Assembly (NCBI GenBank): GCA_045639325.1
Contig: JAZUCU010000024.1
Span: 4,737-68,736 of the forward strand
Direction of reading: 5' to 3'
From: Victivallales bacterium
GTDB lineage: Bacteria > Verrucomicrobiota > Lentisphaeria > Victivallales > UBA1829
DNA: 64,000 nt
Below, piece by piece: positions 2,331 to 22,229 of the stretch (its first letter is position 1; each line of letters starts with the position of its first letter). A program made the position numbers and the translations under genes. Under the pieces are notes generated by a model. The model made no database searches. It was not told the DNA's origin and was given only the letters and a program-made list of their open reading frames with translations.

Positions 2331-2377
2331 GTTTTAGTCTCCTTAAAAAAACGTTAAAAATATCGCAAAAATAAAGT

Positions 2378-2725
2378 GGACTGCAGCTGTAAGCCGGATT
2401 CTGTGCCTCCGTGAGGAGGTGACGATCATCTGTCTAATGCGGCCAAAACCCGGGATTCGAGCGTCACGGGCAGCGACATCATCCCCTATTTGGCCTTGCT
2501 CCGGAAGGGGCTTGCCAGGCGGCTGAAATTACTTTCAACCCCGGTGGTCTCTTACACCGCCGTTTCACCCTTACCGGATTGCTCCGGCGGTATGCTTTCT
2601 GTTGCGCTTTCCTTCCCTGCACTTTTCGTGCAGGTATCCTCCGTGAGGAGGACTTCCTGCCCTATGGAGTCCGGACTTTCCTCCCCGGAATCGTGAGATT
2701 CCAAGGCGACCGTCCGCTGCAGTCC
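2378..2725 (-). ncRNA. rnpB: RNase P RNA (bacterial type A)
   Basis: Minus strand has GAGGAAAGTCCGG near the 5' end and ACAGAATCCGGCTTA near the 3' end; perfect 10-bp P1 helix GGACTGCAGC/GCTGCAGTCC closes the molecule. Confidence 0.96.
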
Positions 2726-18280: not shown

Positions 18281-19486
18281 TTATGCCATCTTTGTCAAAG
18301 AATTTTCATAGATCCGTTTGACGGCTTCCGCTGTCGCTTCGGTCGGAGCCAGAGAAAGCAGGCCGCCCAGAGACGGTGTGGTGAATGTCAGATTGACCAG
18401 TTTATCCAGATCGGCTGCGGTGTAACCTTCGTCCGTCAGTTTCTGCGGGACGCCGGATGCTGCCAGCCATTCTTCCACACCTTTTGCCGCTGCCGCAGCT
18501 TCGGAAGGTTCGCCTTTCAAGCCCGGGACGAGGGGTGCCAGGATGTCGGCAAGAACAACCGGTTTTGCAGGATAGATTTCAAGGATCACAGCCGGCAGAA
18601 GCATGGAGAGACCAAGACCATGTGCCAATTCCGGTTTGACACCACTCAGCGGATGTTCCAATGCATGGGTGTAATGCAGCAAGCCGTTATCGAATGCCAC
18701 TCCGGCAAGCATAGAAGCGTAGAGCAGGTAATAACGGGCTTCCAGATCGGCGGGATCTTTTTCTGCAATCGGCAGATACTGGGCGATCAGAGACAGCACT
18801 TCGCGGGCGAGAGAGATGGAAAGCGGACTTGCGGCTTTGCTGGTTGCGGCTTCCACACAGTGGTTGATCGCGTCGATACTGACATAACGGGTCTGTTTCG
18901 GAGAAAGACCGGTCATCAATGCGGGGTCATCAATGGACCATGTGGGATAAATGCAATCGTAAGCGATGGCGGGCTTGTATTCTTTTTCAAGAATGGTTGC
19001 CACCGCAAAACGGTCCGCTTCTGTACCGGTACCATGTGTCAGATTGACAGCCACGATGGGGACGGCATTGACCGGTGTAAACTTCATTTCGTAAAGGTCC
19101 TGCGCGGTATTACCGGGATTCGCCAACAGGATTGCAGCACTCTTACCGGCATCGATGGGGCTTCCGCCGCCGATTGCGATAACGGCTTTTGCATCGGGAG
19201 CGGCTGCAACTGCGGCATCGATCTGTTCGGTTGTGGGGTTGGGTGTGACCTGATCGAAGAGAGTGAAAGCGATACCGCGGGAATCAAGAGCGGGTTTGAT
19301 CACATCCCATGCGCCGGTTGCCTTGTATGCACCGCGACCGGAGACGATGAGAACGTTTTTGATGTTGCGAGCGACGAGTTGATCAGCGATGTCATTGATT
19401 TTCTGAATGGCACCGCATCCGAAATAAACCAGAGTTCTAAGTCTGAATTCGGAAACTTCGTGAATGTTTATGCTGTTTTTGAACAT
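18281..19486 (-). CDS. Iron-containing alcohol dehydrogenase
   Basis: AIGGGSPIDAGK, THGTGTE, DAINH, HALEH, HGLG. Confidence 0.93.
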   Translation of the reverse strand: MFKNSINIHEVSEFRLRTLVYFGCGAIQKINDIADQLVARNIKNVLIVSGRGAYKATGAWDVIKPALDSRGIAFTLFDQVTPNPTTEQIDAAVAAAPDAKAVIAIGGGSPIDAGKSAAILLANPGNTAQDLYEMKFTPVNAVPIVAVNLTHGTGTEADRFAVATILEKEYKPAIAYDCIYPTWSIDDPALMTGLSPKQTRYVSIDAINHCVEAATSKAASPLSISLAREVLSLIAQYLPIAEKDPADLEARYYLLYASMLAGVAFDNGLLHYTHALEHPLSGVKPELAHGLGLSMLLPAVILEIYPAKPVVLADILAPLVPGLKGEPSEAAAAAKGVEEWLAASGVPQKLTDEGYTAADLDKLVNLTFTTPSLGGLLSLAPTEATAEAVKRIYENSLTKMA

Positions 19487-19672
19487 AATATGTCTCCTTG
19501 AGTTAAATTGATGATAGACCGGACGCTTTATCCGGCTGTTAAATTCTATGGTAATTTATCACCATTTCTCTCTGATTGCAAATGAAAAACTGATATATTC
19601 GTTATTTTTTTATCTATTTTCATTTTTTTGTGTGTAGTAGGAAAGTTTCTGAGAAATTATAACAATTTGGAT

Positions 19673-19726
19673 TTGACATTTATATTATTTGTGATAAATT
19701 AATTTAGTATTATCGGATATCCGATA
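19673..19726 (+). promoter_or_regulatory. Sigma70-like promoter followed by a perfect 16-bp palindrome
   Basis: TTGACA 19673-19678, TGnTAAATT ending 19700 (16-bp spacer), TATCGGATATCCGATA 19711-19726. Confidence 0.5.
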
Positions 19727-19746
19727 GCTCTTTTGAAACCGACATA

Positions 19747-19920
19747 TTATTCAGCAAACGAGACTGAAACCGACCAAGTAGAATTTTTTGTTTGCTATAA
19801 CCTTAGGTGGATTGTGTCTGGTGAGATTGTGTCCTTCGATCTTGCCGGGCGTTTTCATGCATGGTTATAGCGGCTCTTGGTCGGGCCTCAGTCTCGGTGT
19901 GTGATAACGCTCGCTTTTTT
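19747..19920 (+). ncRNA. Candidate rod-shaped structured RNA of unknown family
   Basis: Three nested stems: 19759-19778/19876-19896, 19794-19802/19863-19871, 19815-19828/19838-19851 (8 WC + 6 G-U); upstream promoter and downstream T run. Confidence 0.5.
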
Positions 19921-20032
19921 TTCTTTCTTTTATTCTATTTTTCCTTTTTACACACTGAAAACACTACCATCCTTTTCTTTTTTTTGTTTTTATTTGCTGA
20001 TTACGATTTTTGCTGTAAGATTTTTTTACAAG

Positions 20033-20079
20033 TCAGAAGTCAGTATTCCAGATGAAAAACAAATAAAAAAACGAAAGGA
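20033..20079 (+). repeat. Direct repeat copy 1 (47 bp)
   Basis: TCAGAAGTCAGTATTCCAGATGAAAAACAAATAAAAAAACGAAAGGA. Confidence 0.85.
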
Positions 20080-20553: not shown

Positions 20554-20710
20554 AAATTGTTTTTTTTGATTATAAAGACGATTTCATCAAAAAGGAACAA
20601 TAATATACCTTTGTTGCAATGTACAGATTGCATTGTTTTTAGTGAACGCATTAAGATTAAGAAGAGTATTCTGGAAACTTTGCGATTTCTTATGTAAGTT
20701 AAAAATACAT

Positions 20711-20758
20711 TCAGAAGTAAGTATTCCAGATGAAAAAACAAATAAAAAACTGAAAGGA
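20711..20758 (+). repeat. Direct repeat copy 2 (48 bp)
   Basis: TCAGAAGTAAGTATTCCAGATGAAAAAACAAATAAAAAACTGAAAGGA. Confidence 0.85.
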
Positions 20759-20939
20759 TAAAAGTAATATCAACAAAAGAAAGTTGAAATCTTTGTTTGG
20801 GACATTTTTTGTTAAATATCGAATGTATATTTAGTATTTAGCATAACCTGACAATTACAATTAAGTTACACTTATTTGCAGATATTGGTAAATAAGTCAG
20901 AAAGCTTTGATACTAACAAAATTTATCGTAGGAGAGAAA

Positions 20940-21746
20940 ATGAAAGATTTTGCAGCAATGATTCCTGAAATGGAACAAGAAGAATTACTGAAGGCTTGGA
21001 AAACAAACCGTATAATATGTTCCGTCAATGCAAGTTTGTTGTTTTTACTGATGATGTATGGAATAATGTTAATTGCGTATGCTCCTAAAACTGTTAATAA
21101 AACAGGGTTTCTTTGTTGGAGTATTATAGTAACCTCTGCTACTGTCCTGGCATTTATATCGACTCTTTTTTGCAAAAAAACTAAAAAGTGTTGGTATTCA
21201 GTTGTTTTTACAAGCGTCGGATTGGTGACTTTTTTGGTTGCATGGTTACATGGTGCACTATACTTGAGCGAGTACAAGATTTCAAAACTATTCGCTACTT
21301 TAAAAATGTGGGCTATGTATGAAGGTTGGTTGTTAAGCGTAATTTTGGTAATTGCAGCATATATTGTGATTATATCACTTTTTATCTGTTTTAGAAAATA
21401 TCTTTTGAACAGTATGGAACTCAAAAAAGAAATAAACAAACGGGCGGTAGATTATCTGAAAAGCCAAGATGTTGAAATTGTCAAAAATTTATATTGCACA
21501 ATGATTAAACAGATCTACTGTTTGATTGCTATGGTAATATTCGTAGCAATCATTGTAGTAGCTACAATCTTTGATGTTGCAGTCCTGGGCGTTTTTATGC
21601 TTCTTTTTACAATCGTATTATTACCGATTTTGCTGACATATTATTTCTGTAAGACGATTTATCTTCGGCACAAAGTTGCATGTCCGTTTCCGTTTTATTT
21701 CGCAACATTGAAAGCTGTCGTAAAAGACAATAATTGTACAAAATAA
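20940..21746 (+). CDS. Hypothetical polytopic membrane protein (about 6 TM)
   Basis: 268-codon ORF in AT-rich DNA, SD AGGAG, multiple hydrophobic helices; no family recognised. Confidence 0.7.
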   Translation: MKDFAAMIPEMEQEELLKAWKTNRIICSVNASLLFLLMMYGIMLIAYAPKTVNKTGFLCWSIIVTSATVLAFISTLFCKKTKKCWYSVVFTSVGLVTFLVAWLHGALYLSEYKISKLFATLKMWAMYEGWLLSVILVIAAYIVIISLFICFRKYLLNSMELKKEINKRAVDYLKSQDVEIVKNLYCTMIKQIYCLIAMVIFVAIIVVATIFDVAVLGVFMLLFTIVLLPILLTYYFCKTIYLRHKVACPFPFYFATLKAVVKDNNCTK

Positions 21747-21847
21747 CATCCATACCAATAGGGAGATCATCAATTGCTGGAACGAGTCTTAATCGCATTG
21801 GATTCTGTGAAAGCATTGAGATAAAGAAAATATTACGAGAACTATTT

Positions 21848-21897: not shown

Positions 21898-22229
21898 AGA
21901 TTAATGATGCCGGGATGCACAAAACATCTTTATTCGGCAGGGGCAATATTTCCGGACAGGAACAGACGATCGCGCCTTTTTTGACCTTTATTTTGTGATT
22001 TGCAAATCGAAAAACGATATATATTCGTTATTTTTTTATCTATTTTCAGTGTTTTGTGTATTAGAGGGAAAAAAACTGTGATGATTTCAATTTCAAATTC
22101 AAAGTACGGGAACTGCAGAAAAAAATTCTTGCGTTGCTTGCAAAAAAGCACTTTCAAGGTTATATTACTGCAAAACGTAAACGGCTGAAATGCCGATTTT
22201 ATCAGTCAAAAAAATAAAGGTTCAAAAAT

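Follow-up and report, generated by a model that had tools for sequence, protein, structure and literature searches.

A rod-like RNA that is GC-richer than its flanks and stands ahead of AT-rich genes raises the question of what such an element does there. The one studied here lies in a 64,000-nt stretch of DNA (the window, meaning the whole of the stretch analysed) from a Victivallales bacterium (assembly GCA_045639325.1, contig JAZUCU010000024.1, positions 4,737-68,736, forward strand; GTDB lineage Bacteria; Verrucomicrobiota; Lentisphaeria; Victivallales; UBA1829). An earlier note had reported a rod at 19747-19920 and offered a 6S RNA, an attenuator or switch leader, an antitoxin RNA, or a new class as its identity. 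The rod is a real structured element, and the interpretation placed on it was partly borne out; of the four options, the attenuator or switch leader is the one that fits. Structured RNA is present within the claimed limits, but its extent is wider, about 19707-19922 on the plus strand, and the earlier delineation left out the 5' hairpin with the boxA-like motif (19710-19738) and the terminator helix (19844-19862/19897-19914). All of the quoted helix strings were found in place. The pairing between 19759-19778 and 19876-19896 exists, but as two 9-bp stems with a small internal loop between them rather than as a continuous helix; the strings at 19794-19802/19863-19871 form part of the longer P4, and the 14-bp stem 19815-19828/19838-19851 contains six G-U pairs, as read off the sequence. 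The element is 46% GC against 26-27% in its flanks and ends in eight T (19915-19922). The plus strand of 19740-19930 folded at -74.7 kcal/mol (z -6.11), a value equalled by 0 of 200 shuffles. Strand specificity held in that this strand folded much better, but the minus strand (-50.3 kcal/mol, z -4.79) also beat its shuffles. A 6S match in Rfam would, according to the earlier note, have explained the rod; there was none, and the RNA is uncatalogued. The Rfam search of the window, at gathering and E-value thresholds, returned only RNase P elsewhere (class A, 2374-2725, minus strand) and five sub-threshold matches, none of them for the rod. The same search of 11 homologous loci gave one tRNA and nothing else, with no riboswitch or T-box model. 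As for a leader peptide, inspection by eye showed the ATG inside the rod to be unconserved and the frame to be broken by loop indels. The features of the locus are listed in Table 1.

Table 1. Features of the leader and of its surroundings in the window.
Feature	Position	Strand	Basis or remark
Iron-containing alcohol dehydrogenase gene	18281..19486	-	Divergent neighbour outside the element
Direct repeat, ~70 bp	19575..19644 (left copy); 21999-22070 (right copy)	.	Brackets promoter, leader and both ORFs
Sigma70-like promoter	19673..19700	+	TTGACA-16 nt-TG-TAAATT; predicted start near 19707; family-wide score
5' hairpin, variable sequence	19710..19727	+	boxB-like by position; fold in the window, hairpins in homologues by eye
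boxA-like 12-mer	19727..19738	+	Predicted NusB:S10 site; 8.0 bits on the Victivallales rRNA-site profile
5' domain of the terminating fold	19741..19818	+	P1 19741-19752/19809-19818; helix A 19753-19763/19786-19796
Rod, predicted antiterminator	19759..19896	+	Folding, covariation
P2 of rod	19759-19767/19888-19896	+	
P3 of rod	19770-19778/19876-19884	+	
P4 of rod	19792-19802/19863-19873	+	
Apical stem of rod	19815-19829/19837-19851	+	
AAA linker, conserved	19767..19769	+	Between P2 and P3; alignment of homologues
Hairpin C, 5 bp	19872..19887	+	Loop TTGGTC 19877-19882, within terminator; covariation
Predicted intrinsic terminator	19844..19922	+	Arms 19844-19862 and 19897-19914, then 8 T
First downstream ORF, 128 aa	20167..20553 (or from ATG 20176)	+	34% GC, hydrophobic C-terminus, no family
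Second downstream ORF, 279 aa	20907..21746	+	Hydrophobic, 33% GC, no family; missing in related strain

The element belongs to an RNA family that is multi-copy in gut Lentisphaeria. A pattern scan returned at least 117 stretches; among the 80 titled records listed, 69 were from Lentisphaeria/Victivallales (including Victivallis vadensis), 8 were entitled 'uncultured bacterium', and the others were one Bacilli bin with a true copy and two chance matches. The source genome held seven matches: five copies were full, one was a 3' half, and one carried an insertion. With a covariance model, at least 29 of the 36 genomes of the bacterial family carried the leader, at 1-8 copies each, and it was not found in 7; in the phylum sample it was present in at least 36 of 151 genomes, mainly in two Victivallales families (11/14 and 18/24). 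Scoring was confined to the best candidates, which makes these genome counts lower bounds. Weak matches in other families, inspected by hand, had the same layout and a different sequence. Pattern matches in viral contigs (1 and 10) were all judged to be chance, and plasmids and phages gave no match to the leader. Full-score copies in the Bacilli bin (L101) and in another class of the phylum (G176:C72) reflect either transfer or bin contamination. Copies were divergent, with a mean column identity of 49%, and large insertions were tolerated within the rod. Our literature search found no description of this leader RNA. Short (33-55 nt) candidates from Lentisphaerae, one of them near Sel1 genes, appear in a supplement table of PMC8040213, and they may include a short piece of this leader. 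We conclude that the leader represents an uncatalogued cis-regulatory RNA family, which belongs neither to the 6S or T-box RNAs nor to any family in Rfam.

From 130 full-length copies, 100 were retained at 90% identity and aligned. Their covariation supported the earlier proposal of a structure selected as single-stranded RNA on the plus strand, and it did so for two folds. In the rod, 88.2% of cells were paired, compared with 73.2% in shuffled and 31-45% in slid controls, and there were 609 double-change cells versus 182. The second, terminating fold is composed of P1 and helix A, a terminator helix abutting the T run, and hairpin C inside the terminator. In this fold 95.4% of cells were paired (91.6% shuffled, 32-52% slid), with 164 double-change cells versus 52, and 113 of the 164 fell in pairs exclusive to the terminating fold. 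RNAalifold recovered the terminator and hairpin C from the alignment unaided; run on the gapped alignment, it did not return the rod. One hairpin C pair was U-A in 56 and C-G in 42 of the 100 copies. On a tree built without the columns under test, where counts are minima, double changes numbered 22 for the hairpin C pair, 10-13 for each of four terminator pairs, and 21-27 for three P2 pairs. P1 had the weakest covariation, its best pair showing only 3 double changes on the tree, and the 5' domain of the window copy alone folded no better than shuffles (z -1.2). The terminator domain of the window reached -31.9 kcal/mol (z -4.35, unconstrained domain fold). At least five T of eight followed the helix in 84/94 copies, the run being poor in the other 10; a conserved terminator helix and U run is what an attenuator should possess.

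The rod and the terminating fold exclude each other because two sequences needed by the terminating fold, the P1 3' strand and the terminator 5' arm, are taken up by the apical stem. By comparison of sequences, then, the leader is an RNA with two mutually exclusive covarying folds, in which the rod is predicted to sequester the terminator 5' arm. Taking both folds into account, the apical-stem G-U pairs appear to fall largely on letters obliged to pair with two different partners. The earlier note had caught one piece of the second fold, the helix AGCAAAC/GTTTGCT, which we found to extend to the full helix A, but had missed the rod-sequestered terminator and the boxB/boxA-like signal. The 6-nt loop of hairpin C is complementary to the P3 strand located in the 5'-domain loop (19772-19777 in the window). 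Both duplexes reach into divergent homologues: in the 13 of 17 loci that were parsed (4 had a wrong anchor), the terminator duplex was kept in 12 and the P1 duplex, with changed sequence, in 7. The AAA linker, hairpin C, and the loop complementarity were retained as well; conservation of the linker was partly forced by the search pattern, and the linker was also retained in homologues found without that pattern.

A promoter-like site is present upstream, in line with the promoter proposed previously; taken alone it is weak (6 sites in the region versus 3.8 expected), but it is enriched family-wide, where the upstream promoter score exceeded shuffles in 84/94 copies. The promoter was followed by a hairpin whose sequence varied freely and then by a 12-mer, G(C/T)T-N-(A/T)TT-N-A-N-AA. 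In four Victivallales genomes, the 16S leaders and the 16S-23S spacers contained the same type of motif, likewise after a hairpin. Such rRNA leaders and spacers are where boxA is expected (PMC13753749, PMC8632103), and the E. coli and B. subtilis consensus is given in PMC13753749. Using a boxA profile built from nine Victivallales rRNA leader/spacer sites, 94/100 homologues scored above shuffles, the site lying 18-23 nt before the anchor in 94, and 55/100 copies were two or fewer mismatches from a Victivallales rRNA site. In the source genome, 5/6 copies reached 8 bits, the background rate being 0.6% per scanning window. Beyond the 12-mer, no homology was found between the leaders and the rRNA leaders. 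The arrangement of a nut site, with the lineage's rRNA boxA following a hairpin, was found in the close subfamily only. Divergent homologues had no clear boxA (at least 3 mismatches, at scattered distances), and therefore the switch is independent of boxA, which is a feature of the main subfamily. Among these boxA-less loci, L221, L224, L225, L228, L231, L244, and L259 often had an SD-like AGGA/GGAG together with an AT-rich stretch located 55-75 nt ahead of the switch; no peptide was conserved. The source genome encodes Rho, NusA, NusB, NusG, and two SuhB-family genes (SuhB assigned as PF00459 family only). Four DNA sequencing runs were compared with the locus, and in two runs from related strains the promoter and 5' hairpin stretch corresponding to 19630-19720 was replaced by 92 other letters with the flanks kept; promoter swapping between paralogues is possible.

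The leader sits between a promoter and a co-directional gene, as an attenuator should. The nearest long ORF downstream was co-directional in 56/62 loci, while the upstream ORF was on the same strand in 41/72. Promoters were not enriched between the terminator and the start codon (32/66 loci; median gap 221 nt in 67 loci). Downstream DNA was AT-richer than upstream DNA in 50/59 loci (45% vs 54% GC). The first downstream ORFs (n=83) included 8 with AIDA adhesin repeats, 7 glycosyltransferases, 5 Sel1, and 3 NusG-type proteins, with single cases of GmrSD, caspase, dynamin, WYL, PIN, radical SAM, and LRR; 35 had no Pfam family, and some of these may not be genes. No common metabolic theme, replication gene, or transposase family was found among the 83. 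At four loci (L079, L083, L181, and G017:C229) the leader stood directly before NusG paralogue genes, and at three others (L010, L032, and L055) simple sequence repeats lay shortly downstream, where phase variation is possible.

In the window, a similarity search with the first downstream ORF gave no usable match. The promoter-leader-ORF block is absent from the same site in a congener. A 40-bp direct repeat (20033-20072 and 20711-20750) stands once ahead of each downstream ORF, and a related strain is without 20632-21796, so that the ORFs look like cassettes. A long form of the leader, seen for example in L003, L021, L027, L044, L057, and L103, carries extra elements 100-450 nt past the terminator: an arm complementary to the terminator 3' strand and a conserved 12-nt motif after the T run (32/73 loci). 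The hairpin of this motif folded in 41/46 cases, often with a GAAA-type loop, and 15/32 long-form loci, versus 3/41 others, had a further terminator-like hairpin together with a complementary 5' arm. The long form, which the window copy does not have, may contain a second, tandem switch.

Together, these comparisons of promoter-like site, hairpin, boxA-like 12-mer, both folds, T run, and downstream orientation point to a multi-copy 5' leader that is probably a transcription attenuator, with the rod as antiterminator and an rrn-type Nus loading site, acting as a kinetic gate with read-through as its default and with a bias from Nus. Such a leader likely switches AT-rich surface and defence genes on and off. 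The 5' domain (P1 and helix A) would fold first. If it persisted, the terminator 5' arm would stay free and RNA polymerase would stop at 19915-19922; if instead it were displaced, first by the apical stem and later by P4, P3, and P2, the rod would hide the terminator arm and polymerase would enter the AT-rich cargo. The boxA-like motif likely loads the rRNA-type Nus antitermination complex, which would shield the reading-through polymerase from Rho and might, through its hold on the P1 strand that begins 2 nt past boxA, tip the fold in favour of the rod. The E. coli rrn complex is described as binding boxA and the linker that follows and as chaperoning nascent RNA (PMC8632103). Because P1 starts 2 nt past boxA and that linker is gripped in E. 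coli, a loaded Nus complex would be expected to promote the rod, and the polymerase reaching the cargo would be resistant to Rho. This bias is the weakest step of the mechanism and, judged on its own, is somewhat doubtful.

Stepwise folding of the window copy gave the 5' domain first, with the rod taking over from about 19856. At equilibrium, the rod was the best fold in 91/93 copies, and the mean disadvantage of the terminating fold was 18.6 kcal/mol, pseudoknots being left out of the calculation. P1 was favoured in 56/94 copies before the terminator arm emerged and in 2/94 once hairpin C was reached, and blocking the P2/P3 strands restored the terminator in only 11/94. Given the stability of the rod and the early loss of P1, read-through is the predicted default of a gate that would be under kinetic control. 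The early loss of P1 and the poor rescue by blocking P2/P3 further imply that termination needs a stabiliser or a kinetic trap and that help from Nus would be unnecessary for read-through. The 5' domain would have to outlast the polymerase, whether through kinetics, the hairpin C pseudoknot, or a bound factor. Nus as the sole trigger is weakened both by this default and by the boxA-less homologues. The terminator loop, which is unusually long and branched, counts against the attenuator reading.

An equilibrium default of read-through calls for an OFF signal, and the main rival explanation, a variant of the above that differs in its trigger, supplies one. A small molecule or an RNA-binding protein would stabilise the 5' domain and a pseudoknot of hairpin C with the AAA linker and P2, causing termination, and boxA would be a separate anti-Rho add-on. 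The survival of the linker, hairpin C, and the loop complementarity in boxA-less divergent homologues favours such a switch, as do the many unrelated surface genes behind one leader, an arrangement reminiscent of second-messenger riboswitch regulons. However, nearly all conserved letters are explained by double pairing, which leaves few conserved unpaired letters for a binding pocket, no Rfam riboswitch matched, and the 83 downstream ORFs share no metabolic theme. We regard this OFF switch as possible but rather unlikely. T-box leaders combine a terminator/antiterminator switch with UGGN in a loop, and both are shared here, but there was no Rfam match, in divergent homologues the UGG of the leader changes together with its cis partner, and the downstream genes are not amino-acid related.

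A trans-acting small RNA, 6S-like or a sponge, is very unlikely. In that case the transient fold would only terminate transcription, and the released RNA of ~215 nt would refold into a working rod. The rod is indeed the stable fold, has about the length of 6S RNA, and contains a central bubble; moreover, RF00013 was matched in 0/6 Victivallales genomes (G000, G006, G037, G043, G049, and G056), with the cut-off passed in 4/14 control genomes, so that the 6S RNA of the source genome and its five relatives is unaccounted for. Yet 6S RNA has a central bubble open on both strands, occurs in one or two copies, and is independent of the downstream gene. The leader showed none of these features: its bubble is strongly asymmetric, its copy number is variable with some family genomes yielding none, and it lies in cis before oriented genes that have no promoter signal of their own. 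It also matched neither RF00013 nor 6S-flavo, tolerates large insertions in its rod, and has a built-in alternative terminator, and a short RNA would have no use for a boxA. The 6S option of the earlier note is therefore not supported.

The leader also resembles the antisense-controlled attenuators of pT181 and pIP501, which are long, have an antiterminated default fold, and place a terminator before the gene (PMC5703833). Its hairpin C loop reads TTGGCG in 19/94 copies, the antisense-target loop motif of ColIb-P9, whose repZ shares with the leader a UUGGCG-type loop with a cis partner. By analogy, this loop suggests fast loop-loop pairing. A U-turn has a role in such pairing. Control by an antisense RNA, or a type I toxin-antitoxin locus, is nevertheless highly improbable. 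One weak minus-strand promoter-like site was present in the window (19961-19932), but antisense promoters were not enriched in the 3' flank (36/94) or inside the leader (52/94). The leader is chromosomal and multi-copy, no replication gene occurred among the 83 downstream ORFs, and no plasmid or phage matched. No conserved small ORF was seen either, the systematic screen having covered ORFs of 80 aa and above, and with no antisense promoter signal the antitoxin-RNA option of the earlier note is not supported. Least probable of all is a mobile-element remnant or end (MITE-like, or an IS-derived 'mobile attenuator' as described in PMC2965389) with no regulatory role, in that the copies, although dispersed, patchy, placed before unrelated genes, and in the window flanked by a direct repeat around a block missing from the congener, are divergent with compensatory changes in two folds, have no terminal inverted repeats, carry a promoter and hairpin sequence of their own, and precede no transposase family in the 83 first ORFs.

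Under the attenuator reading with a Nus loading site, the closest relative of the 5' end is the rrn antitermination signal (boxB-boxA-boxC; NusA/B/E/G, SuhB, S4), with which it shares the order of promoter, hairpin, and boxA-like 12-mer as well as the sequence type. Unlike that signal, the leader is in mRNA, has many copies, and is followed by a two-state switch and terminator instead of rRNA. The boxA elements of the suhB leader, hisG, and CRISPR leaders likewise lie outside rRNA operons (PMC12360218, PMC13753749); in the accounts given of them there, they act through Rho, promoting or blocking it, and no coupled terminator/antiterminator switch is described. LoaP, RfaH, and UpxY act at a leader hairpin and terminator before long, costly, or foreign operons (PMC12691694), as here, and the 3/83 NusG-type first ORFs add to the likeness. 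In contrast, the source genome has one NusG-family match for 7 leader copies, the leader has no UNCG hairpin, and its gating appears to work by RNA refolding.

The evidence for two complete alternative folds in one uncatalogued RNA is unusually clean, and the leader is spread through Lentisphaeria. It offers an orphan switch, and one that is testable because it is present in the cultured species Victivallis vadensis. An rRNA-type boxB/boxA signal combined with a terminator/antiterminator switch was not found in the literature searched. Tentatively, the leader could be an antitermination checkpoint at which only boxA/Nus-loaded polymerases fold the rod and pass the terminator. Access to foreign AT-rich operons would then be reserved for polymerases that resist Rho, and the expression of these operons would be tied to the supply of free Nus factors, S10, and SuhB. 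An entire order of bacteria would be relying on an RNA switch and the rRNA machinery for what RfaH does in enterobacteria. The leader may show how gut bacteria of the PVC group manage, in the presence of Rho, to express adhesin, polysaccharide, and defence genes that they have acquired.
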